DNA from: a virus
IMG/VR virus record: IMGVR_UViG_3300048785_000093
Location: 1 to 44,480 of that record
Length of the DNA: 44,480 bases
Strand: one strand, 5' to 3'
The translations under genes and the position numbers were made by a program. Shown in pieces: positions 9,247 to 35,333 of this stretch. How positions within the stretch are numbered: position 1 is the first letter of the stretch; every line of letters starts with the position of its first letter. The notes under the pieces were generated by a model. The model did not search any database. It saw only the letters and a list, made by a program, of their open reading frames with translations, and was not told the origin of the DNA.

Positions 9247-10263
9247 ATGTTACTGGAGAAAAATGTAGTTGGCAAGAAGACGGATTGGGCGAATTACATC
9301 ACCCTGTCCGACGAACACGAAACGCCGCTGCTGAAGCGGCTGCCGAAGGGCGAACGGCCGGTGAATGTGGTGAAGCATTACCAGGCGGACACCTACGAAA
9401 CGCCCACGCCGAGCGCGTGGCCGGAAGGCAAGGCCTGGGACACCTTCACCAGCGCGGGTGCGCAGCGCAAGGAGCTGCAGGCCCGGGTGCAATACCTGGT
9501 GCAGACGGCGGCGGTGGGCAAGCTGGCGCAGGACGTGACGGACACGGCGGGCGTGAACGACGAACTGGCCCGCGAGATCACCAAGAAAATGACGGTGCTG
9601 GCGCGGCAGATTGAATGCCATGCGGCCAGCGACCAGCCGAGTTACGCGGACGACGGCCAGACGGGCAACATGTTCCGGGGAATCGGGAAATGGCTGCAAA
9701 CCACGGCGCAGTCCGACGCGGACAGCGACGTGCCGGCCAGCATCCGGCCAGCCAGCGACCAGATCTTCACCGGAGCGACCACCACACTCTACGAAAACAC
9801 CCTGAAGACGGTTTGTCAGAGCATGTGGACGGCGACGGGCCGGATGAACCGGAACCTGGTGTTGTTCGGCGGGGCATCGCTGATCAACCAGATTGCGGAA
9901 AACTTCCAATGGTTCAAGCCGAGCGACGCGGCCACGCAGGCATCGGCGCGCATCGCTTATCGGGAAGAGGGCAATGCGACCCTGGGCAGCCGGATCAGCA
10001 CCTACGAAAGCTCGTGGGGCACGATTGAACTGCAGCCGACGAAATGGAACATCGCGGTGGGATTCAGCGGCGGCTCGGCCACCTACGGTCCCTGGCGCGG
10101 TTATCTGTTGCATCCGGAAATGTGGATGTGGCACTGGAACCAGAAGCCGACGGTTTACCAGCCGGAATACAAGGGCGGCGCATATACCTGCGCCATCGAG
10201 GCGATCATCATGCTGCTCTGCAAAAATCCGATTGGCGAGGCGGCCTTCAAATCGGCCAGCTAA
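9247..10263 (+). CDS. Major capsid protein (SU10/DUF5309-like pattern)
   Basis: The N-terminal DWANYITLSDEHETPLLKRLPKGERPVNVVKHYQADTYE matches the d.i..isp.dTPl.s.l.k......h.W pattern of that family. Size (338 aa) and position fit. Confidence 0.7.
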   Translation: MLLEKNVVGKKTDWANYITLSDEHETPLLKRLPKGERPVNVVKHYQADTYETPTPSAWPEGKAWDTFTSAGAQRKELQARVQYLVQTAAVGKLAQDVTDTAGVNDELAREITKKMTVLARQIECHAASDQPSYADDGQTGNMFRGIGKWLQTTAQSDADSDVPASIRPASDQIFTGATTTLYENTLKTVCQSMWTATGRMNRNLVLFGGASLINQIAENFQWFKPSDAATQASARIAYREEGNATLGSRISTYESSWGTIELQPTKWNIAVGFSGGSATYGPWRGYLLHPEMWMWHWNQKPTVYQPEYKGGAYTCAIEAIIMLLCKNPIGEAAFKSAS

Positions 10264-21938: not shown

Positions 21939-22156
21939 AAAATCTGTGGACCATTCCGATGCTGCTTTGGCTGACATTTTCGGCGGCGGCCAACGCGCTT
22001 GGTCAGACGCGCCATGACCACTCTCTTGACCATCCTCTGCCTCGCCTTCCGGGCTGGATGCCCTACAGGCAGGAAGCCCTACAGGCAGGAAGCCCTACGG
22101 GCCGGAAGCCGTCCTGCTCGCGCCGTGGGCGGTGGGGAAAACAATTTGAATTATGA
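21935..22156 (+). CDS. Possible 73-aa exported protein containing a 16-bp tandem repeat
   Basis: ATGA overlap with the upstream gene. The N-terminus is MKNLWTIPMLLWLTFSAAANA. The remainder is low complexity and partly repeat-encoded. Confidence 0.35.
   Translation: MKNLWTIPMLLWLTFSAAANALGQTRHDHSLDHPLPRLPGWMPYRQEALQAGSPTGRKPSCSRRGRWGKQFEL
22060..22107 (+). repeat. Three tandem copies of the 16-bp unit GCCCTACAGGCAGGAA (third copy has 2 mismatches)
   Basis: Read directly. The unit length is not a multiple of 3. Confidence 0.9.
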
Positions 22157-24072
22157 AAACTAAACTATCGGTCCTGTTTTTGACAATGCTGCTGGCACTC
22201 GCAGGAACAATGAACCTGCGCGCGGTGAGCAATGCGAGTGGCGTAATGAATGACATTTCCACGCTGTTTATCGTTGCGCCGACGAATGCGTGGGAGATCT
22301 GGGAGGGCGACCCGGCGGTTGTCCAGTTCTGGGTGGACATGATGACCTTGCACGGAAACGGCACGAACTGGGTGAACCTCAACTATACCAACCTTGTTGT
22401 CACCAACGGGACAACTGTTCCAGTGGGTTATCCATCAGACAGGATCGTTGTTGGAGACGCCAACGACGATTGGATTTCCCTATTTTCACCGAACGACAAT
22501 GCCTACATTGGAATTTTAATGGGGCCGAACAACGCCCCGCGCAGCGAGGGCCTTTATTACAAGAGTGGAATACTTGGTATTTATCACCAGTCGCACACAT
22601 TTGGGTCTTTCGACCAGAACGGAATCTTTAATCTGTTCTACGGAATAAATTTTCCGGCTGGTGGAGAAAACCTGCTGGGCCCGTCAAGTTATCCTGTAGG
22701 CTACACAAAGAGCGCACAGATTCCATTTGTTGGCGGGTCTGCGTCCAGCATGGATGACCTGCCGCCGTCTGCCCTGGCGGTTGCAAACAACATGCCGGTG
22801 CCGGTCTTCAAGTTTGCGGCGAATCTTAACGACAACTTTTCACTGACGAATTTCAACCAGCGCGAGATTACCAACATCATTCCACAGCTTGCTTTTCTTG
22901 AAGGCTTTTTGGAAGCGAACGGGACACCCTCGGTTTGCACCATTGACAGTCATTGGACTCATCCCAATCGGGATACAAACGGTTTTATAACGTGGGACAC
23001 CAATGCCTTTCCCAAAGGAATTCCGTGGCTGGCCGCATTCCTGCATACCAACCACTGGAACCTGGAACTGGACCTTTACTACATGCCCGGTTTCTTGAAT
23101 GCAACCAATATCCAGATTGTGACTGATAGCGCGTTCTATCAGGAGATGACTCCAATGACCGTCCAAAAAGACATCGGCCTGATCCATAGCTGGGGAGTAG
23201 ATGGCATTCGCGCCGAGGACAACGTTCTTGATTCTGGCTATCAGCAGCAACTCATGTTGCAAGTCTCCGCAGCCTGCGTCTCTCCAAAAGGACTTGTATT
23301 TAACGACCCCATAAATCAGACCTATCCCAGGCCGATGTATTCCGGCGCTCTTATTCAAAACCCGCCAAATCCAAACTGGTCATCCTGGCTTAATGAAGTT
23401 GGGAACGACGGCTTTGAATATCCTCCGCCTGCGGCAGCCACCACGTGGTTCCTTATAGACATGTGGAATGCGCGGGTGGACTGGACTAATTACGTTCCCG
23501 GAACATCAAGGGGACACTATTTCGACATTGGCCAGTTCAGTTCCTCCGTAGTTAACTACGGACTTCCGGATGCGCGAATAATACTTTCTTCATCCGCCAT
23601 GTTTTACAGCGTGTTGGGATTTGCGGGAAGCACCAACTATCCTTTTATAAGCCTTTCAATTACAAACAGTATGTTGTCCAACACAAACTGGCTTGCAATC
23701 CGAAATGACCCGCTGTTTGCCCACACAGTAAAAATTTACGACGGCGGAATTCTTTCGACTTCTGTATGGGCACGGCCACTTGCTTCCGCCGGCGCGGCGG
23801 TGTGGATGGTGAATGAGACAGGGGTGCCAGTAACACAGTCCATTCAGTTCTCCCAACTGGGAGCGTTACCAACAGCTACTTACGACGTTATTGACTGCTG
23901 GTCAAATGCTGTTGACCTTGGAAATTTTACCGGCGGATTTACCAACACAATTCCTGCATATGACTGTGGGTTATACCAGTTCAAGCCAGTGGCAACCGAC
24001 GTTTCAACAACAGGCGTTAAAGTTTATGCGCACCTGACCAACGGCGTGGCAACGTGGACGAGTTCACCCTGA
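22153..24072 (+). CDS. GH27/clan GH-D alpha-galactosidase-like protein with an N-terminal signal peptide
   Basis: CTIDSHWTHPNRDTNGFITWDTNAFPKGIPWLAAFLHTNHW parallels the GH27 segment IDDCW...RD..G.L..D...FP.GI..LA.Y.H. SWGVDGIRAEDN parallels WGVDLLKFDGC. The N-terminus is MKTKLSVLFLTMLLALAGTMNLRAVSNA. Confidence 0.65.
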   Translation: MKTKLSVLFLTMLLALAGTMNLRAVSNASGVMNDISTLFIVAPTNAWEIWEGDPAVVQFWVDMMTLHGNGTNWVNLNYTNLVVTNGTTVPVGYPSDRIVVGDANDDWISLFSPNDNAYIGILMGPNNAPRSEGLYYKSGILGIYHQSHTFGSFDQNGIFNLFYGINFPAGGENLLGPSSYPVGYTKSAQIPFVGGSASSMDDLPPSALAVANNMPVPVFKFAANLNDNFSLTNFNQREITNIIPQLAFLEGFLEANGTPSVCTIDSHWTHPNRDTNGFITWDTNAFPKGIPWLAAFLHTNHWNLELDLYYMPGFLNATNIQIVTDSAFYQEMTPMTVQKDIGLIHSWGVDGIRAEDNVLDSGYQQQLMLQVSAACVSPKGLVFNDPINQTYPRPMYSGALIQNPPNPNWSSWLNEVGNDGFEYPPPAAATTWFLIDMWNARVDWTNYVPGTSRGHYFDIGQFSSSVVNYGLPDARIILSSSAMFYSVLGFAGSTNYPFISLSITNSMLSNTNWLAIRNDPLFAHTVKIYDGGILSTSVWARPLASAGAAVWMVNETGVPVTQSIQFSQLGALPTATYDVIDCWSNAVDLGNFTGGFTNTIPAYDCGLYQFKPVATDVSTTGVKVYAHLTNGVATWTSSP

Positions 24073-26664: not shown

Positions 26665-27783
26665 ATGGCTGATGACATGACAGAAGCTGGAGCAATAGGC
26701 GGAGCGGGGCTGGGGAAATTCATTGGCGGATTTATCCAACGCGCCAAACAGGCGAAGACCCTACGAGCTGCCATTGATGATTACGCGCCGCGGTTTGCCG
26801 CTGGAGACAATGACCCGGCAACAGGCCAGCCGGTAACACCGGATCAGGTGGAAAAACTGACGCCGGAAGGACAGTCTAGAGTAGCATGGTCGCATACGGC
26901 CGGGTTGCCAGATTTGGAAGGCTACTGGCAGGGCGAAACCCAGAAGAGGGCCGCGCAAAAGACGCAGGCGGACATTGCCGAGCAACAGGGCCGGGCGAAG
27001 TATTACAGCGACTTTGGGGACATGCGCAAACAGCAGGAACAGACCTCGAAGGACGACGAGGCCGACCGGGAAAACATTTCCAACATGCTGGGCGACTTCA
27101 GCAAGACACACCTTATGCCGGGCGAAACGCCGGACGTGGACCCGGACACGGGCGAACCGGCCACGGACAAGAAACCGTTCAATCCGATGGAGCTGCTGAT
27201 GGGCGCCATGCAGGCCGGCGTGAAGCCGCGCAATCTGCAGTTCATCAGCCAGAGCCTCAAGGACGTGTCGGGGTATGGGACGGACACGGAGGACAAGCCA
27301 AACCTTACCCAGGTGCCATCGGGACCGCCGGGCAGCCAGGGTTACCACACCATCCCGGTATTGACCCGTGGCAAAGGCTGGACGCAGGTGGACCCTGCTT
27401 ATGGCGCGGCGGCACGCGGGGGAGAGACGGCGGAATTGCAGACTCAACGCGAGGCGGCGCGGACCAAACTTGCTCCAAAGGATTTATTGAAGTCCTATCA
27501 GGACGAATTGACGGCGCTGAACAACCCGATGAACTGGTCTGGCACCACGCCGGAAGACAGGGCGGGGCACAGGGCGGAATTGACCGGGAAGATCGAACAG
27601 TTGCGCGGGAACGCGACAGGCGCGCCGGCAGCGGCGGCCACGGCGGCAAAGGGCTCATCGGCTTTAAGCAGCGTGCCGGCGGAGAAGCGGACGGCCGTTG
27701 GCGCATTGCAGCAGCAACTGGTTGCGGGCAAGATCACGAAACAGCAATTCAAGGATGAACTGGGCAAACTGGGCATTCAATGA
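26665..27783 (+). CDS. Internal-virion-like protein (372 aa)
   Basis: N-terminal Gly-rich segment. ATGA-coupled to the giant ORF. Confidence 0.5.
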   Translation: MADDMTEAGAIGGAGLGKFIGGFIQRAKQAKTLRAAIDDYAPRFAAGDNDPATGQPVTPDQVEKLTPEGQSRVAWSHTAGLPDLEGYWQGETQKRAAQKTQADIAEQQGRAKYYSDFGDMRKQQEQTSKDDEADRENISNMLGDFSKTHLMPGETPDVDPDTGEPATDKKPFNPMELLMGAMQAGVKPRNLQFISQSLKDVSGYGTDTEDKPNLTQVPSGPPGSQGYHTIPVLTRGKGWTQVDPAYGAAARGGETAELQTQREAARTKLAPKDLLKSYQDELTALNNPMNWSGTTPEDRAGHRAELTGKIEQLRGNATGAPAAAATAAKGSSALSSVPAEKRTAVGALQQQLVAGKITKQQFKDELGKLGIQ

Positions 27784-30700
27784 GCCTGGCCGATGAACTG
27801 ACCGAGGAAGCCGCGCCACCGTCTTTGGCAGACGATTTGGCGAATGAAGCGCCGCAGCCAATCGGCGACCAACTCGCGCGCGAGGCGCTGGTGCAGCAGA
27901 AGCAAAAGCTGGCGGCCCTGCCGGAAACCGGAAAATGGCGCGAGCTGTTTCCGGCCATGTTCGATCTATCGGACGAGCAGAAGCAAAACGCCGAGACAAC
28001 TCATGGCGCATTTCAGAAGCTGCGCGAATCAGGACTGACACCCACACAGATTGCCCAAAACGCGCAGGCCGTCCACGACAAGTGGGATGCGATCATTTCA
28101 ATGGCTTCGGAGTCCAGGCCGGACAATGTGCCCAAGTTCATTGCGCAGCGGGACGCGGAATTGCGCCAGGCCGGCGTGGAACCGATGAACCTGGACAGCG
28201 CATTTACCCTGCCCAAGATGGACGAGAAGGACGTGCGCGAACTTTTCCCACACGCGCCCGGCCGGGCCGTAAATGCCATCCAAGCCGGCCAGAACACAGC
28301 GGCGGCGCTGGGCGAGGGCTTTGCATCGCCGGAAGGGGTGCTGATGTTTCCAGCCGGGGTGGGGCCACAGGTCGGGCGCGCTTTTCTGGCTCAAATGGCG
28401 GCGAGTTTGCCGGTGGATTTGAGCCAGGCGGCGGGCCATTACTCCGCAGGCGACCCGGAAAGCGGGGACAGCAAACTGATACAAGCGGGCGTGACAGCGG
28501 GCATGCTGGGCATACCCATTGTGGCTGGCAGACGCGCGGGGATACAACCGAAAGGAGCACAAAATGCCGAAGCAATACGAAGCGATACGGGACAGTTACC
28601 TGAAACGGGGCAAATCCCTGAAGGAGGCCAAGAAGCTGGCGGCCATGACGTGGAACAAGGACCACCCGAACAACCCGAACCCGTGGAGTCGGGAGGACGC
28701 GCAGGCGCGGGTGAAGAAGGCGCTGTCGAGCCGCCGACGGTAGCCGATCTGGAGCAGGAAGCGCTCGGCCCCAAACTACCCGATGTTCCACCGGTCGGCC
28801 CGACGCAACAACAACAGAAAGACCCAGACCAGCCGATATTTGACCCGAACGAATTTGGCAGGCTGGTGGCTGAACTCAAGAGCGTCGCCGCACACGATGA
28901 GGCGGTGCTGAATGCGCCGGTGTTGCCGGGGCCGCGCCAGGCGGAGGAAGTTTCGGATGAAGAAATCCAGAAAGCCAAAGCGGAGCCCGAAGCCATGCGG
29001 CAGGCGGAGATTGAACGGGTGCGGGCCAGCGCCGAGGCGCGCGGCGCGCAGGGGACAGCCGGCCCTGCCCGCTGGACGCCGCCAGTGGCCGAGCCGGTAG
29101 AGCCAGTGCCCGCAGCCGAGGGTGGTTACAGGTTTGCGGATGCGGTCAAAGACGCGGGCGGATTGAGCGCGCCGCCGCTGGACGATGCCCTGGCGGAGAT
29201 CCGGAATGGCAAGAGCGCAGCCAGGGTGGTGGCGGAGTGGAGCCACGGCGCCACCGGCCACGACGAACTGGCCGGGATACTCGAGGAGATTGCCGGCGCG
29301 CGGGACAACAAGGAAGCCGTGCTTTACCGTAACTTGCGCGCAGCTTACAAGAAAGCCTTTGCCTGGAACGAGCCCGCCGGCCAGGGCGCGCCGGATGAGA
29401 CGTTGGCGGGCCTGGGAGACATTCAGCGGGCAGGCATGATGCCGGACCATATGCCGGAGACCGAGGAGGAACTTTACCGGCAGCAGTGGGAACATCACAC
29501 AGCCGGGCCGCCCGTTGATGCGGAGGCCACACAGGGGGCACAGGATGCGGCGGATTTTGAAGTCTTTAATAAGAGCCTGACAGTCCATAGTCCAGAGTCC
29601 ACAGTCCCGGAAATTTGGAGCGGCGATCAGAAGCTGGGCGAGGTGCGGACGGGTGCGAGCGGCGCGAAACATTTTGTGCCGGGGCCGGAGGCGGAACGGT
29701 TGCCGCCGGAATATCAACTGGCCGTGATGAGCAAGGCCGGGATTGACATTGAACACGGGATGGCCGTGCCTGCCGGTGGCGAGGCGTTGCCGGGATTGGG
29801 CACCAGCCAGCCGGAACTGGACCCCACCATGCTGCGCAAGCTCACCAAGATGGCGAGCATTCTCGTGGAGCAGGGCAAGACGAGTTTCCCCGATTTCGCC
29901 AGGACGATGAGCCAGGCGCTTGACGGGAAGTTAAACCAGTATTATCATGCGGCATACGAACAAGTGCGGTTTTACACCGAGGCGTGGCACTTGCGGGACC
30001 GGCTTACGCCTCAAGAGGAGACCGAGACTTATGACAACAATGGCAACCGAACCGATCGAGCAGGCGCCGCTGGAGGCGGACCGGAGCTTTCTGGAACAGT
30101 GGGAGGAGCGGGCCGTGGCCGACGACCAGGCCTTCGCGTGGTTGACTTCCGAGATTTACCAGCGCCCAGACCGATTGTCCGCAGTGGCGAATATACGGGG
30201 CCGGGCGGCGCGGGCCTCGATGAGGTCCAGCGCTTCGCCGTCAATGCCGCCCTCACCGCCTTCGACGACGGCAAGAAAGCCTATCTCCTCGGGGACGGCA
30301 CAGGCGTCGGCAAAACCGGCACGGAACTCGCCATTGCCAACGCCTACGCGCAAAAGACCAAGCTCCCCAGCCTGATTGTCACACAGAGCATTCCCATAAT
30401 CGAAAACCGTTTCAAACAGGACGCCGTAAAGCTGGGCGTGCCCATGCAAAACACGACGTTCATCACCTACAGCGATCTGTCCACCGGCAAGGTGCCCGCC
30501 GGGAAGTTTGGCGTGGTGATCTATGACGAGGCTCACAATCTCAAGAACGCCGGCAGCGCGCGGGAGACGTATAGCCGCGACGTGCAGGCGGAACGCAAGG
30601 TCTTTGCCACCGCCACGCCCATGGATGGGCCCACGCACGCCAGTTATTTTTTGAGCGAGCTTACCGGCAAGACGCGGGAACAAATCGCATCGCAACTCGG

Positions 30701-33700
30701 CTTCCATTACGAACAGCGGATGGTGAACGGGAAGAGCCGCACGATGGCCGTGCTGGACAAAGACACGAGCTGGGGCACGGTGGTGGACCATATCAAGAAG
30801 CTGCGCAATCTGGCGGTGCAGGCCGGCCAGTTGATCCGGCGCGAATATCCTTTTTACGGCCGGGCGCAACTGCGCGAGGCGCCAGCCTATTCCAAGGCGC
30901 AGCGGGATGAACAGGAGACGATCATCGCCCATTGGGACAAGCTGATCAACGCCGCGCGACCGGGCAGCAATTACCGGCGCAATCTGGCAGGCCAGAAGAC
31001 GCTCGAGCTTTCGCGCTGGGCGGAGATCCAGAAGCTGCCGCACATCCGCGATGCCATGCTGCAGGATTACAAGGACGGCAAGCACGTAATTGTGTATGCG
31101 GAGAATTACAATCCGAGCATGGTAAAAGGCCTGGGCAAAAGCATTCCCGGTTTTCTCACCGAGTTGGGCAAGGAACTTGACGCCAGGAAAATCCCTTACG
31201 CCAAAGTGTTCGAGGACGATCCGTATGCCAAGGCGAAGGCGGCGGCGGCGTTCCAGGGCGGGCGGGTGAAGGTGTTGCTGGCCACGCCGCGCAGCGGTGG
31301 CGCCGGGCTGGACATGGACGACCAGATCGGTAATGCGCCGCGCCAGGCGCACGCGGCCACGCTCAACTTTAGCGCCGACGTGTTCGATCAGATGCTGGGC
31401 CGCGTCTCGAGGCGCAACACGGCCAGTCCGGCGGATTTTCATGTGTGGATGAACCGGGACAGCTTTGCCGATGGCCGAAGGATGCAGGTGGCGGACCGCA
31501 AATTGCGCGTGCTGCGCAACATCCAAGCGGGCGAAGACCTGGACACCAGCGAGTTTGAAGGGGAAGGGGAGCATGGGATGCCGGATTTCAACGGGGCATT
31601 TGCGTTTGAACCGGCGGAAAGCAGCGCGGAACAGGCGGCGAGGATGGTGGGCGAAGAAGTCCAGAGTCATCAGTCCGCAGTCCGCAGTCAAATGCAGGCG
31701 CGCGCGCAGGAGCGACTCACAGGCAGCACGGGCGATCTGGGACAAGGGGATTTTGTGGGCGGCGGGGATTTGTTCGCGCCAACAACGCGCGCTTCAGTTG
31801 AGCGGCCGATGTTCATTCCGCTCAAAAGCGAGTTCTTCGAGGCCTTCAAGTCGGGCGACAAACGTGAAGAATATCGGAAATATGGGCCCGGCTGGAATGA
31901 GAAAACCGCCCCGGTGGGGCGCAAGGTTGTTCTGTCGAAGGGTTATTCTGGCGAGAGGCTGACGGGCACGATTACCGGATTCAGAAAGGAAACGAATCCT
32001 CAGAGTCTTCCCGGCTGGAATAAGGTGTATGGATCAGAAGCCGGGACGGCGGCCGTCATTGAGATTGCGGTGGATCGAAACGAGTCTGAACATGGCCAGC
32101 CAGCCTTGCAGCGTGGCGGCGTGCCGGGGTTGCCGGTGGAAATGGACCAGACCAAGGCAGGCAAAGCCACCATCGGCCAGATCAATGCGGCGCTCGAAGC
32201 TGTCTCGCGCGCGGCGGGCGGCAATACGCCCATCCGGTCGGGCCGCGTGACCGGCCGCACGGCCATCGGACCGAATCGCGCCATTTACAAGGACCGTCAG
32301 GAAGTTGTCCGCGTGCGCAGTGTGGATGATATTCCCGCCGCCACGCATGAGATTGCCCATGACCTCGCCAAACAGGTGTTTGGGCGCGTGGCAGCCGGAG
32401 GCGATCAGGGTGGCTCTCCCGCGGCCATGCGCGAGCTGGAAGACCTGGGCAAGGCCCTTTACGGCGATGTGAAGCCCCTTGCGGGTTACGGTGGCGAAGG
32501 CTGGGCGGAATATCTCCGGCACTGGCTATCCACCGATGAGGCGCCAACAGTCGCGCCGCACATGACCAAGTGGTTTAATGAGCAGTTTTTGCCGTTACAC
32601 CCGGAGATTGCCGAGGCGCTGACGAAGGCGCGCGAGCTTATCACCACAAGCCGGCTGCAAGGGGCCGCAGCGCGCGCCCAGGCGCAACTGGCGAGGTCGC
32701 CGGGCGCTTTGCGGCAGATTGCCCAGGCATTGGGCCAGTTTGTAAGTTACAAGGCGCAGATTGAATCGTTCGCGCCCCTCGAGCGGCTGGTGAAGGCGGC
32801 GGAAGCCAGGGCGGGCAAGTTGCCGCCATCGGAGAATCCTTTCCTGCTGGCGTCATGGAAACGCGGCAGCGCCGGCGCCACAGTGGAGCGAATGGCCACC
32901 GAGCACATGCTGGATATTTGGGGCAATCCCGTCGGGCCATCGCTGCGCGAGGCGTTTGCGCCGGTGCAGGGCCAGCGCAGCGAGACGTTGCTGCTGGCCT
33001 TTGCCAAGGCGGCACAGGCGCGGTGGGAACAAACGCGCATGGTGACGGACCCAAGGAGCGGCCAGCGCTCTTTTTTACCGGACCCCAAGAATCCCGGCAT
33101 CAGTCTGGCGGATGCACAGCATATCATCAAGACCATGAGCACGCCGCAGCGCGAGATCGCGGTGCAGAAATGGCGTGAGTGGCACAATGGCCTGCTGGAT
33201 TACCTGGTGCAGGCGGATCCGGGCATGAAACCGCTCGCTGACAAATGGAAATCGGCACAGTTTTACATGCCGCTGGCGCGCATGATTGATCCGGCCCGAG
33301 CCAAGGCCGCAGCGGCGCTGGCCAATAGCAATCCTTTCTTCCGCATGCGCGGCAGCGGATTGCCCGTCAAGGATCTGCTGGACCAGACCATGCTGAATGC
33401 CGCGCGGCTGGTGAACCGGGCCAATCGCGCGCTCGTCACCAACAGCATCGTAAAATTGTCCAATCTCGAAGGGATGGGCCATTTGGTCGAGGCCATCCCG
33501 CGCGGGCGTGTGCGCAATCTGGTGTCGCTTGATCAGGTGCGGGCGCAGCTCGAGGACTTGGGCATTGACACAAGCGAAATGCCGAAGGATCGGATGCTGG
33601 AGTATTGGACGCCGGCGGACATGCCCAAAGGCAGCGCGCCGATCATCGCGGTGGGCAGTCCCGGCCAGCGGCGCTGGTTTCAGGTGGACCCGGAGCTTTA

Positions 33701-35333
33701 CCAGACTTTGGACGGGCTGCAAACTTACTCGCTCAAGCAGGCGTTGCCGGGTTTGCCCTATGCCGGCAAGCTGTTGGATCTCGTCCTGGGCGCGCCTACG
33801 CGCATGTTCCGGCTGGGCACAACGGCCATACGGCCCGGATTCCAGTTCATCACGCAACCCGCGCGGTCGCTGGCACTGATGCTGATGCAGGGGGATAATC
33901 CGGCGCGGTCGGCGCTCAATTATCCGGCGGCGCTGGCGGGCGTGCTCAAGGAAGGGTTCGGTGGCAAGGCTGAGCCATATTCGGCAGCGTTCAAGGATCT
34001 CGGCGCGCACATGGGCCAGCCGCTCGGCCTGGACATCGGCTATACCAAACGCATGAGCGATGAACTATTTCATGGGCGCGTGATCCGAACCGTGCAACAT
34101 CCCATTGACCATTTGCGCCAGTTGTTGAGCATACCCGAAGGCGCGCCGCGCGTGGCGGAGTTGAAAGCCATTGCGGACAAGATCGGCTGGACACCAGGCC
34201 GGCCCATGCTGCCGGATCAGGCAGTGCAGATGGCACTGGCGGCCAAGCGGGTGACAGTGGACTTTTCCGCCGCGGGCGACATGAGCCGGGTGCTGAACCA
34301 GGCGATCCCGTTTTACAATATCACACTGCAACACACGCGGGCGTATGCGCGGGCGTTCATGGAACATCCTGCGCGATCAGCCCTGCTGGCTGGCATGGTG
34401 TTCGCCGCGCCGACGCTGCTGAACTGGTGGCGCAACAAGGACAAGGAATGGTATCAGGCCATGCCGTGGAAGGAACGCTACCTTTACACCTGGCTCGACG
34501 ACGGCAAGAACCTGTGGAAGATCGCGCGGCCATTCGAATGGGGCATGACGGCGATGGCGCTGCCGGAAGCGATGGCAGACTCGTGGTATCGGCGCGATCC
34601 CGAGGCGGTGAAACACGCTTTGGGAGCAATATTCACGGACCTGGATCCGGTGGATTATCCGGTGTTGCTCAAGCTGGCCAAGGAACAATGGCAGAACCGT
34701 ATTGCCTACTTTGACCGGCCAATCGTGCCGCCGTCCGAAGTGGGATTGCCGGCGAACCAGCAGCGCGGGCCCTACACCTCGAGGCTGGCCATCGGCATCA
34801 ACAAGGTTTTCCCCGATGCGAGTCCCCGGCGCGTGGATGCTTTCCTGCGCGGCTATTTCGGCGGCGCGGGCACGGAGGCAATGCAACTCATCGGCTTGGG
34901 ACCACCGCGATCCGGCCGCGGCTGGGAACCGACGGATCTGCCCGTGGCGGGCACGCTGTTCAGGGCAGGCGGCCAGTTCAACGCCAACAACCAGTTTGTG
35001 GCGGACTTTTACGACCGTTACAACCTGATGCAATCGCAGTTCGAGGCGTGGCAAGTGCAGGCCAGCCGGGCCAAGATCACCGGGCAGCCGCCCACGATGC
35101 AGCCGCCAGACTGGGGCATGCAGATGAAGCGGACCATTGCGACGGGCACCACCAAGGAACCGGGCGCAGCACCGGCCTTGAAGGCACTGATGGCGCTGGC
35201 CGGCGCCACGCGGGACAACGATCAGCGCAGTGCGCTCTACCGCGAGGCCGGAGAGACAGCCAAGCGCGCGGTGGAAGCGTTTGATCGTGTGGACAAAGTA
35301 GCGGCACCAAACGGCGCAGCAGGCGGCAAATGA
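27780..35333 (+). CDS. Giant polyvalent protein (2,517 aa): SF2 SNF2/strawberry-notch-like helicase, ASCH-like domain, HExxH zincin, and large unassigned N- and C-terminal regions
   Basis: Helicase motifs GDGTGVGKTG (nt ~30291), VVIYDEAHNLKN (DEAH at 30525..30536), FATATP, LLATPRSGGAGLDMDD and QMLGRVSRRN (~31389). ASCH-like FIPLKSEFFEAFKSGDKREEYR...GRKVVLSKGY (~31806..32075). HEIAH at 32346..32360 followed by EGWAEY. Confidence 0.8.
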   Translation: MSLADELTEEAAPPSLADDLANEAPQPIGDQLAREALVQQKQKLAALPETGKWRELFPAMFDLSDEQKQNAETTHGAFQKLRESGLTPTQIAQNAQAVHDKWDAIISMASESRPDNVPKFIAQRDAELRQAGVEPMNLDSAFTLPKMDEKDVRELFPHAPGRAVNAIQAGQNTAAALGEGFASPEGVLMFPAGVGPQVGRAFLAQMAASLPVDLSQAAGHYSAGDPESGDSKLIQAGVTAGMLGIPIVAGRRAGIQPKGAQNAEAIRSDTGQLPETGQIPEGGQEAGGHDVEQGPPEQPEPVESGGRAGAGEEGAVEPPTVADLEQEALGPKLPDVPPVGPTQQQQKDPDQPIFDPNEFGRLVAELKSVAAHDEAVLNAPVLPGPRQAEEVSDEEIQKAKAEPEAMRQAEIERVRASAEARGAQGTAGPARWTPPVAEPVEPVPAAEGGYRFADAVKDAGGLSAPPLDDALAEIRNGKSAARVVAEWSHGATGHDELAGILEEIAGARDNKEAVLYRNLRAAYKKAFAWNEPAGQGAPDETLAGLGDIQRAGMMPDHMPETEEELYRQQWEHHTAGPPVDAEATQGAQDAADFEVFNKSLTVHSPESTVPEIWSGDQKLGEVRTGASGAKHFVPGPEAERLPPEYQLAVMSKAGIDIEHGMAVPAGGEALPGLGTSQPELDPTMLRKLTKMASILVEQGKTSFPDFARTMSQALDGKLNQYYHAAYEQVRFYTEAWHLRDRLTPQEETETYDNNGNRTDRAGAAGGGPELSGTVGGAGRGRRPGLRVVDFRDLPAPRPIVRSGEYTGPGGAGLDEVQRFAVNAALTAFDDGKKAYLLGDGTGVGKTGTELAIANAYAQKTKLPSLIVTQSIPIIENRFKQDAVKLGVPMQNTTFITYSDLSTGKVPAGKFGVVIYDEAHNLKNAGSARETYSRDVQAERKVFATATPMDGPTHASYFLSELTGKTREQIASQLGFHYEQRMVNGKSRTMAVLDKDTSWGTVVDHIKKLRNLAVQAGQLIRREYPFYGRAQLREAPAYSKAQRDEQETIIAHWDKLINAARPGSNYRRNLAGQKTLELSRWAEIQKLPHIRDAMLQDYKDGKHVIVYAENYNPSMVKGLGKSIPGFLTELGKELDARKIPYAKVFEDDPYAKAKAAAAFQGGRVKVLLATPRSGGAGLDMDDQIGNAPRQAHAATLNFSADVFDQMLGRVSRRNTASPADFHVWMNRDSFADGRRMQVADRKLRVLRNIQAGEDLDTSEFEGEGEHGMPDFNGAFAFEPAESSAEQAARMVGEEVQSHQSAVRSQMQARAQERLTGSTGDLGQGDFVGGGDLFAPTTRASVERPMFIPLKSEFFEAFKSGDKREEYRKYGPGWNEKTAPVGRKVVLSKGYSGERLTGTITGFRKETNPQSLPGWNKVYGSEAGTAAVIEIAVDRNESEHGQPALQRGGVPGLPVEMDQTKAGKATIGQINAALEAVSRAAGGNTPIRSGRVTGRTAIGPNRAIYKDRQEVVRVRSVDDIPAATHEIAHDLAKQVFGRVAAGGDQGGSPAAMRELEDLGKALYGDVKPLAGYGGEGWAEYLRHWLSTDEAPTVAPHMTKWFNEQFLPLHPEIAEALTKARELITTSRLQGAAARAQAQLARSPGALRQIAQALGQFVSYKAQIESFAPLERLVKAAEARAGKLPPSENPFLLASWKRGSAGATVERMATEHMLDIWGNPVGPSLREAFAPVQGQRSETLLLAFAKAAQARWEQTRMVTDPRSGQRSFLPDPKNPGISLADAQHIIKTMSTPQREIAVQKWREWHNGLLDYLVQADPGMKPLADKWKSAQFYMPLARMIDPARAKAAAALANSNPFFRMRGSGLPVKDLLDQTMLNAARLVNRANRALVTNSIVKLSNLEGMGHLVEAIPRGRVRNLVSLDQVRAQLEDLGIDTSEMPKDRMLEYWTPADMPKGSAPIIAVGSPGQRRWFQVDPELYQTLDGLQTYSLKQALPGLPYAGKLLDLVLGAPTRMFRLGTTAIRPGFQFITQPARSLALMLMQGDNPARSALNYPAALAGVLKEGFGGKAEPYSAAFKDLGAHMGQPLGLDIGYTKRMSDELFHGRVIRTVQHPIDHLRQLLSIPEGAPRVAELKAIADKIGWTPGRPMLPDQAVQMALAAKRVTVDFSAAGDMSRVLNQAIPFYNITLQHTRAYARAFMEHPARSALLAGMVFAAPTLLNWWRNKDKEWYQAMPWKERYLYTWLDDGKNLWKIARPFEWGMTAMALPEAMADSWYRRDPEAVKHALGAIFTDLDPVDYPVLLKLAKEQWQNRIAYFDRPIVPPSEVGLPANQQRGPYTSRLAIGINKVFPDASPRRVDAFLRGYFGGAGTEAMQLIGLGPPRSGRGWEPTDLPVAGTLFRAGGQFNANNQFVADFYDRYNLMQSQFEAWQVQASRAKITGQPPTMQPPDWGMQMKRTIATGTTKEPGAAPALKALMALAGATRDNDQRSALYREAGETAKRAVEAFDRVDKVAAPNGAAGGK
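28564..28743 (+). CDS. 59-aa basic helical protein overprinted in the +1 frame of the giant ORF
   Basis: AAGGAG at 28552..28557 lies 6 nt before the ATG. 51 of 59 codons end in G/C, against 27 of 60 in the main frame over the same span. Sequence: MPKQYEAIRDSYLKRGKSLKEAKKLAAMTWNKDHPNNPNPWSREDAQARVKKALSSRRR. Confidence 0.6.
   Translation: MPKQYEAIRDSYLKRGKSLKEAKKLAAMTWNKDHPNNPNPWSREDAQARVKKALSSRRR

Follow-up and report, generated by a model that had tools for sequence, protein, structure and literature searches.

In bacteriophage λ, the Rz1 gene lies wholly inside Rz in the +1 frame and encodes a lipoprotein specific to Rz, the pair forming one complex (PMC5295617). The subject of this report is small1, a 59-amino-acid gene that occupies the +1 frame of a giant open reading frame (ORF) in a viral DNA of 44,480 nucleotides (IMG/VR record IMGVR_UViG_3300048785_000093, positions 1 to 44,480), referred to throughout as the window. 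In form, Rz/Rz1 is the described system closest to it. In both, a small phage gene with start signals of its own is wholly contained in the +1 frame of a larger one; both products are in each case thought to be needed. Unlike Rz1, small1 is portable, standing free in about two thirds of its family, and the host segment that spans it is without amino-acid constraint. The small1 product has no cysteine and no signal sequence or hydrophobic leader; an Rz1-type lipobox was not found.

The use of one DNA stretch for two proteins is also familiar from overprinted genes such as phiX174 E in D and B in A, where the embedded frame is young and arose de novo (PMC8227390, PMC7017920). As in those cases, each frame at the small1 locus limits the codon choice of the other. 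Here, in contrast, the embedded gene is the older and more widespread of the two, while the spanning frame is derived and of low complexity. The closest parallel in evolutionary logic is out-of-frame remodelling, in which parts of composite genes come from an alternative frame of another gene and are short and disordered (Watson, Lopez and Bapteste 2021, PMC8788219). Unlike the remodelled genes, small1 is a donor that remains intact in place and is apparently functional; the segment is dual-coding, the arrangement recurs in many lineages and the frame is fixed.

Programmed frameshifts in phage structural genes, such as λ G/GT and T7 10A/10B (PMC5009743), likewise use two frames within one late structural gene region, but at small1 there is no slippery site, and the embedded frame comes with separate initiation signals and has homologues that stand alone. 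The proteins that host small1 resemble the polyvalent proteins described by Iyer, Burroughs, Anand, de Souza and Aravind (2017, PMC5512222) in their LPD38, InPase, ART-PolyVal, ddrB-ParB, helicase and methylase domains. That work treats polyvalent proteins as single-frame domain arrays, and a term search of it turned up nothing on frameshifts, overlaps or genes lying in other frames. A wider literature search for the peptide, and for polyvalent or virion proteins with genes nested or embedded in them, brought up no earlier account. Morons are reportedly, after Hendrix and colleagues, independently expressed small genes inserted between phage genes. small1 is like them in being portable, in having its own expression signal and in being present or absent among close relatives (the window versus the related contig L051), and unlike them in lying within a coding sequence that continues uninterrupted. 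Nested out-of-frame phage genes are already known; the present case differs in its ancient, portable embedded gene, the unconstrained linker spanning it, the recurrence in one fixed frame, and the two unrelated nested genes in one host. The features on which the case of small1 rests are the following.

27780..35333, + strand: giant ORF, 2517 amino acids, a phage-type polyvalent protein by its Pfam domains and its relatives, and host of both nested genes
28552..28557, + strand: Shine-Dalgarno sequence AAGGAG of small1, with a 6-nucleotide spacer to the ATG, read from the sequence
28564..28743, + strand: small1, 59 amino acids, in the +1 frame of the giant ORF, isoelectric point 10.6, supported by family homology
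28563..28742, + strand: dual-coding segment in the giant frame, amino acids 262-321, a G/Q/E/P-rich linker by composition and substitution comparison

Very probably, as judged from comparative sequence analysis, this 180-nucleotide stretch codes in two frames, an independently started small gene lying inside one continuous polyvalent gene. The product of small1 is MPKQYEAIRDSYLKRGKSLKEAKKLAAMTWNKDHPNNPNPWSREDAQARVKKALSSRRR, 59 amino acids, with the ATG at 28564-28566 and a TAG stop at 28741-28743, and both reading frames are open across the whole overlap in the window. A preliminary description, made from the letters alone, had placed AAGGAG at 28552-28557, 6 nucleotides ahead of the ATG at 28564, and its hand count gave 51 of 59 G/C-ending codons for the embedded frame and 27 of 60 for the main one; the coordinates were verified and the counts proved exact. 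For comparison, the G+C content at third codon positions (GC3) averages 0.74 in the main frame of the window and is usually about 0.7 in the +1 frame. That GC3 is so high in the embedded frame (86%) is due in part, as the preliminary description had not foreseen, to the avoidance of T-ending codons, since a T there would make stops in the giant frame; 2 of 58 third positions of the window copy carry T. The main-frame peptide had been called filler; it is G/Q/E/P-rich, and its hydrophobic fraction is 0.12 as opposed to 0.27 in the remaining giant protein. Main-frame GC3 was also said to be high again immediately after the embedded stop; it does rise, but gradually, from 0.57 at 28740 to 0.65 at 28800 and 0.75 at 28920. 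When the 7.5-kb giant ORF is scanned in 40-codon windows, a collapse of main-frame GC3 together with rising +1 GC3 occurs at only two places, 28560-28680 and about 30060, and each holds a +1-frame gene supported by homology.

A search of 5.8 billion proteins returned 25 homologues of small1, all of 42-86 amino acids and strongly conserved over their first 33 residues. With a profile, 388 clusters were found among 1.84 billion cluster representatives (E<=1e-3), nearly all of 45-100 amino acids with the domain beginning at residue 1. Over the part that aligns, its nearest relatives share 77-86% identity with the window copy. The family is marked by invariant residues, a length of about 45-70 amino acids and an N-terminal domain; all of the invariants (alignment A1: M1, P2, K3, Y5, I8, G16, K17, S18, K20, A22, A26 and A27) are present in the window copy. 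Because the family is real and has free-standing homologues, the +1 ORF is not a compositional accident. Free-standing genes occur in varied contexts where contigs carry gene calls (for example L001-L006), at times directly after long ORFs of 1402 and 1880 amino acids (L003, L010), and in one protein, P0078, the small1 domain is joined in frame to a polyvalent-specific InPase domain. The tail motifs of the family (NPNPW, HPGHPM, PVTR) and the positions of its stops are conserved from nested to free copies. An AlphaFold2 model of the window protein, with a predicted local distance difference test score of 76.6, has helices at residues 3-14, 19-33 and 43-57, and a helical hairpin (3-14, 19-33) followed by a basic tail is predicted. 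Codons 3-9 of small1 contain a tandem 10-nucleotide repeat, GAAGCAATAC/GAAGCGATAC, at 28569-28588 (+ strand); as the repeat unit of 10 is 9+1, E-A-I-R is spelled in both frames (...YEAIR... in the small frame and ...AEAIR... in the giant one).

Loci homologous to small1 were gathered from IMG/VR, JGI metagenomes, GTDB genomes, and Logan and ENA contigs, and were sorted as free or nested by stop-to-stop scanning. This gave 92 distinct copies, 56 of them free-standing, 31 nested and 5 ambiguous. In all 31 nested cases small1 is in the +1 frame of its host, and the host ORFs reach about 4200 amino acids on contigs that hold them whole. The contigs range from 0.32 to 0.66 in G+C content. LPD38 is present in the hosts of L013, L021 and L034, and InPase with ART-PolyVal in those of L034 and L037, the latter ORF also carrying ddrB-ParB, N6 methylase and zeta toxin domains; by this domain content, several nesting hosts are proven polyvalent proteins. 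The host proteins are mosaic, with unrelated flanks around small1, so that the overlap segment is often the sole part in common. In its small protein the window copy is about as close to a free copy (L005, 41/51) as to a nested one (L008, 40/51), and L090 has a better free match (38/44) than nested match (29/42). Nested and free copies being interleaved by similarity, the state has changed repeatedly or the cassettes recombine. Two decayed copies were seen. One, at L042 10001-10147, is nested in a 1005-amino-acid ORF and has a stop at codon 15 with homology continuing beyond it; the other, at L007 501-761, has lost its MPKQ start and lies on an 830-nucleotide contig in which the other frame is open to the contig end.

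The nested copies retain the signals for independent initiation. At the position of the family Met-1, a start codon is present in all 30 nested copies checked (ATG in 27, GTG in 3), and GGAG or GAGG occurs at -16..-4 in 20 of the 30, as opposed to 7.7% at equivalent positions of the same ORFs (p=7e-16). No RNA structure able to mask or uncover the internal start was found, folding z-scores lying between -1.3 and +1.75 in 10 loci and at +0.97 in the window. The start regions of small1 are no more structured than shuffled sequence, and no structure of the frameshift-stimulating kind was found there. A promoter scan likewise found no promoter-like site upstream of small1.

The preliminary description had proposed that selection acts mainly on the embedded frame and that relatives be compared for frame-specific conservation, and this comparison confirms the proposal. 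Pairwise comparison of 17 nested copies over the conserved core gives a mean amino-acid identity of 0.51 for the small frame, against 0.32 for the giant frame and 0.32 for the unused third frame. Nucleotide differences among nested copies concentrate at third positions of the small frame. In ten close nested pairs, the 316 nucleotide differences alter 96 amino acids when read in the small frame, 204 in the giant frame and 193 in the third, so that changes in the small frame are half as frequent as in either of the others; since the giant frame changes as the third frame does, its amino acids evolve here like non-coding sequence. What the giant frame does retain is openness. A stop in that frame requires a T at a small-frame third position, and T makes up 3.2% of those positions in nested copies versus 18.4% in free copies. 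Free copies hold 1-13 stops in the would-be giant frame, with none in two GC-rich copies. When codons were randomised synonymously, with the small protein fixed and the codon usage of each locus kept, the probability of a stop-free giant frame was 0.000-0.15 per locus (summed log10 of -35.6 over 17 non-independent loci). Across the overlap, the giant-frame segments are rich in G, Q, E, A and P, and their proportion of hydrophobic residues is half that of the remaining protein. Judging by these patterns, the small frame is under purifying selection and the giant frame is selected solely for the absence of stops.

That the giant ORF is one gene and not two is shown by the related contig L051. 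Amino acids 61-277 of its 2455-amino-acid ORF are 55% identical to amino acids 48-264 of the window protein, and the N-terminal domain there passes in frame into an ordinary A/P/E/K-rich linker with no small gene and with many stops in both other frames. From this in-frame arrangement it follows that the N-terminal domain belongs to the giant protein and that small1 is a linker cassette that may be present or absent. The part of the giant ORF downstream of small1 has no start signal of its own. The suggestion in the preliminary description that the giant ORF is really two genes whose separating stop was lost finds no support, in view of L051 and also of the nested giant frames, which are kept free of stops.

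On this evidence the giant ORF is a single continuous polyvalent gene in which the linker after the N-terminal domain drifts freely in its amino acids. An older, portable small gene sits complete in the +1 frame of this linker, with its Shine-Dalgarno sequence, start and stop, and avoidance of T-ending codons in the small gene keeps the giant frame open. A single late mRNA would give rise to both proteins, initiation at the internal site being independent. Nesting may have begun when the giant ORF came to read out of frame through the small gene or when the cassette recombined into the linker, and it may have been gained or lost repeatedly. A second nested gene, small2, at 30031..30375, follows the same logic.

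Several observations weigh against this reading. For the window alone, the probability of an open giant frame is 0.058, which is marginal, and for this reason the statistical weight comes from the comparison across loci; there, in turn, combined p-values overstate the evidence because metagenome loci are phylogenetically non-independent. The decayed copies of L042 and L007 imply that nested copies can be dispensable. The fixed +1 relation is not explained by obligatory stops, since by synonymous codon choice the other frame would be feasible in 21 of the 29 copies judged. Neither Pfam, NCBIfam, PDB sequence searches nor Foldseek point to a function for small1. Cultured phage records also lack the family, the one exception being a weak match to the N-terminus in the Thermus phage phiYS40.

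Four other explanations have been weighed. The captured small gene could now be a mere spacer in the giant protein, not translated itself, its intact look reflecting a recent capture. The two decayed copies, one with an early stop and one with a lost start, would fit this, as would the typically short and disordered nature of out-of-frame remodelled segments (PMC8788219). Such a relic is nonetheless unlikely, as copies that are only ~50% identical keep the start codon in 30 of 30 cases, the Shine-Dalgarno motif in 20 of 30, where the background is 7.7%, and the full-length ORF; moreover, the substitutions spare the small frame and not the giant one, while a spacer would give the opposite pattern or none. 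Far from probable, too, is a mis-joining of two or three genes by an assembly indel or lost stop, or a chance +1 ORF produced by GC-rich composition, and we regard such an artefact as barely credible. It is true that the +1 frame is often open in GC-rich DNA, that the window-alone probability is marginal and that a gene caller divided the comparable region of L001 into separate genes. Set against this, an ENA assembly contig (L046) is 100% identical and gap-free over 28330-28788, and 30 other distinct copies share the architecture, among them some on contigs of 0.32-0.40 G+C where long chance frames are unexpected. In addition, the N-terminal domain of L051 is fused in frame without a small gene, and the small ORF has hundreds of homologues.

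The remaining two explanations involve recoding, for which slippery heptamers were sought in either direction; the window contains none, and comparison of 17 nested loci showed none to be conserved. The preliminary description had raised a programmed +1 frameshift as an exit from the giant frame. Placed near 28560 and ending at the stop at 28743, it would yield an N-terminal isoform of ~320 amino acids, with AAGGAG as a stimulator as in prfB. An internal Shine-Dalgarno-like sequence does lie upstream of the frame junction, the frame relation is invariably +1, and a database protein, P0129, passes from the giant frame to the small frame. Yet no shift-prone site is conserved, the conserved unit starts exactly at the ATG or GTG with the invariant M1, P2 and K3, every homologue begins at its own Met-1, and two thirds of the family are free-standing with nothing upstream to shift from. 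The frameshift exit is therefore very improbable, and the other possibility named in the preliminary description, a gene within a gene in a disordered linker, is the one borne out by the free-standing homologues, the conserved start codon and the Shine-Dalgarno motif. P0129 itself (298 amino acids) has giant-frame ...AETIRGNQGQL followed by small-frame GKSPKAAKRLAAMTWNKQHPDNPNPW... and so resembles a +1 frameshift product; as its upstream part looks like wrong-frame sequence, an indel in the contig is the simpler and most likely reading. In the opposite direction, a -1 frameshift from the small1 ATG into the giant frame would join the small domain to the downstream giant part, as in P0078. Seen from the small gene, the giant frame is in every case -1, and there are proteins in which the small domain is fused in frame to InPase or to another long protein. 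Such a shift is hardly to be expected, however, because no X XXY YYZ slippery site is conserved in the small frame and the tails and stop positions of the small protein are conserved in nested and free copies alike.

With the nested, independently started gene retained as the preferred reading, the question turns to what its product may do. Searches of small1 against Pfam, NCBIfam and PHROGs gave nothing usable, the sole match being phrog_32268, to the N-terminus of an uncharacterized family. A PDB sequence-profile search gave chance matches alone, and Foldseek against PDB and BFVD gave nothing below E=0.1. One Foldseek match is informative, to phiYS40 ORF168 (A0MNI6, 361 amino acids), which has the N-terminal hairpin in common. 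In this protein (L132 4001-5086; DQ997624.1 150256-151341), the first ~35 residues match the small1 hairpin and the remainder is acidic and K/E-rich. By tblastn against 50,697 phage records, the window peptide had no match, and a family member matched only the phiYS40 type, at E=0.03. The functional leads are associations: nesting in polyvalent proteins, a place right behind the 1402- and 1880-amino-acid ORFs, the in-frame union with InPase in P0078, and the N-terminus of ORF168. They weakly suggest that small1 is a partner of the giant protein, itself probably carried in the virion. A doubtful but conceivable role is that of a packaging or ejection partner, or of a co-delivered nucleic-acid-binding factor, working with the giant protein.

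The second nested gene lies further downstream in the same giant ORF and has the following features.

30015..30020, + strand: GAGGAG, Shine-Dalgarno-like motif of small2, 10 nucleotides before the ATG, conserved in L050, L051 and L052
30031..30375, + strand: small2, in the +1 frame of the giant ORF, supported by free-standing homologues and the GC3 anomaly

The small2 product has a conserved acidic core at amino acids 13-58, LEADRSFLEQWEE...EIYQRPDRLSAVANIRGR, and its tail overlaps the start of the helicase domain, ending at 30375 with the earliest stop that the frame offers. Two homologues stand free, P0176 and P0177, of 70 and 75 amino acids and 62-63% identical. small2 is also nested in the same frame of ORFs of 2303-2709 amino acids in L050-L052, viral contigs that carry relatives of the giant gene. 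At 29920-29948 (+ strand), ~80 nucleotides before the small2 ATG, there is a sigma-70-like promoter match (TTGACG, a 17-nucleotide spacer, TATCAT; 10/12). This promoter-like site inside the giant ORF may give small2 its own transcript. An all-against-all comparison of alternative-frame peptides from 18 giant ORFs returned only the small1 family and a weak 25-amino-acid match without a start codon.

The giant protein that hosts both genes has these further parts.

27780..28562, + strand: N-terminal domain of the giant protein, amino acids 1-261, with a Gly/Ala-rich hydrophobic C-terminal end, 55% identical to L051
30216..30626, + strand: ResIII/SNF2-type helicase motifs in the main frame, giant-protein amino acids 813-949, from Pfam
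34443..34946, + strand: LPD38 domain, giant-protein amino acids 2222-2389, a polyvalent hallmark, Pfam E=2.7e-24

With 2517 amino acids, several domains, and both LPD38 and a ResIII/SNF2 helicase, the giant protein belongs among the polyvalent proteins. Its relatives in L050 and L052 are 58-66% identical to it across long stretches, and its C-terminal third resembles podophage proteins, some of them annotated as DarB-like or as virion proteins. A gene for an SU10-type major capsid protein lies at 9247-10260 of the same window. Together, the podophage-type C-terminal matches and the SU10-type capsid gene identify the window as a divergent tailed-phage genome. Most window proteins have no PHROG match; amino acids 1-800 of the giant protein returned nothing as a homologue-search query, and blastn of 27780-29300 against phage records also gave no match. 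The ATG of the giant ORF shares ATGA (27780-27783) with the TGA of the preceding 372-amino-acid ORF (26665-27783), an overlap that suggests translational coupling. Gly/Ala-rich hydrophobic stretches, for example LIQAGVTAGMLGIPIVAG, close the N-terminal domain at amino acids ~170-260 (28290-28560, + strand). Stretches like them are found upstream of the nested gene in L013, L026 and L035 and at the same position in L051, and they may be membrane-active segments. Elsewhere in the window, a 639-amino-acid ORF at 22153-24072 (+ strand) has matches to the C-terminal domain of alpha-galactosidase (melibiase) and may encode a tail-associated glycosidase.

The nested role of small1 can be tested without touching the host protein, as two substitutions abolish the small gene and are silent in the giant frame. 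T28565C changes the small1 ATG to ACG while the giant codon goes from AAT to AAC and keeps Asn; C28578A changes Tyr5 of small1 to a stop while the giant codon goes from CGA to AGA and keeps Arg. A rule for finding similar genes also emerges: a dip in host GC3, depletion of T at third positions of the +1 frame, and an internal Shine-Dalgarno sequence with an ATG. Run on the 7.5-kb giant ORF, this rule found both nested genes and nothing else.

About one third of the sampled small1 family is invisible to standard annotation because it lies inside a longer ORF. A tentative generalization is that the linkers of polyvalent proteins could be a general home for portable, independently translated small genes that encode needed partners, and that giant ORFs could be assembled at least in part by out-of-frame read-through of small genes formerly situated between their parts. 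If so, the partners would serve, for example, in the loading of the capsid or in release, and nesting would lock the pair against recombination. Phages would then have coding capacity that stays hidden because gene callers discard it by design. In the present case the usual story of overprinting is reversed, with an old embedded gene and a new, unconstrained spanning frame, which suggests that giant multidomain phage proteins may grow via fusion across intervening genes.

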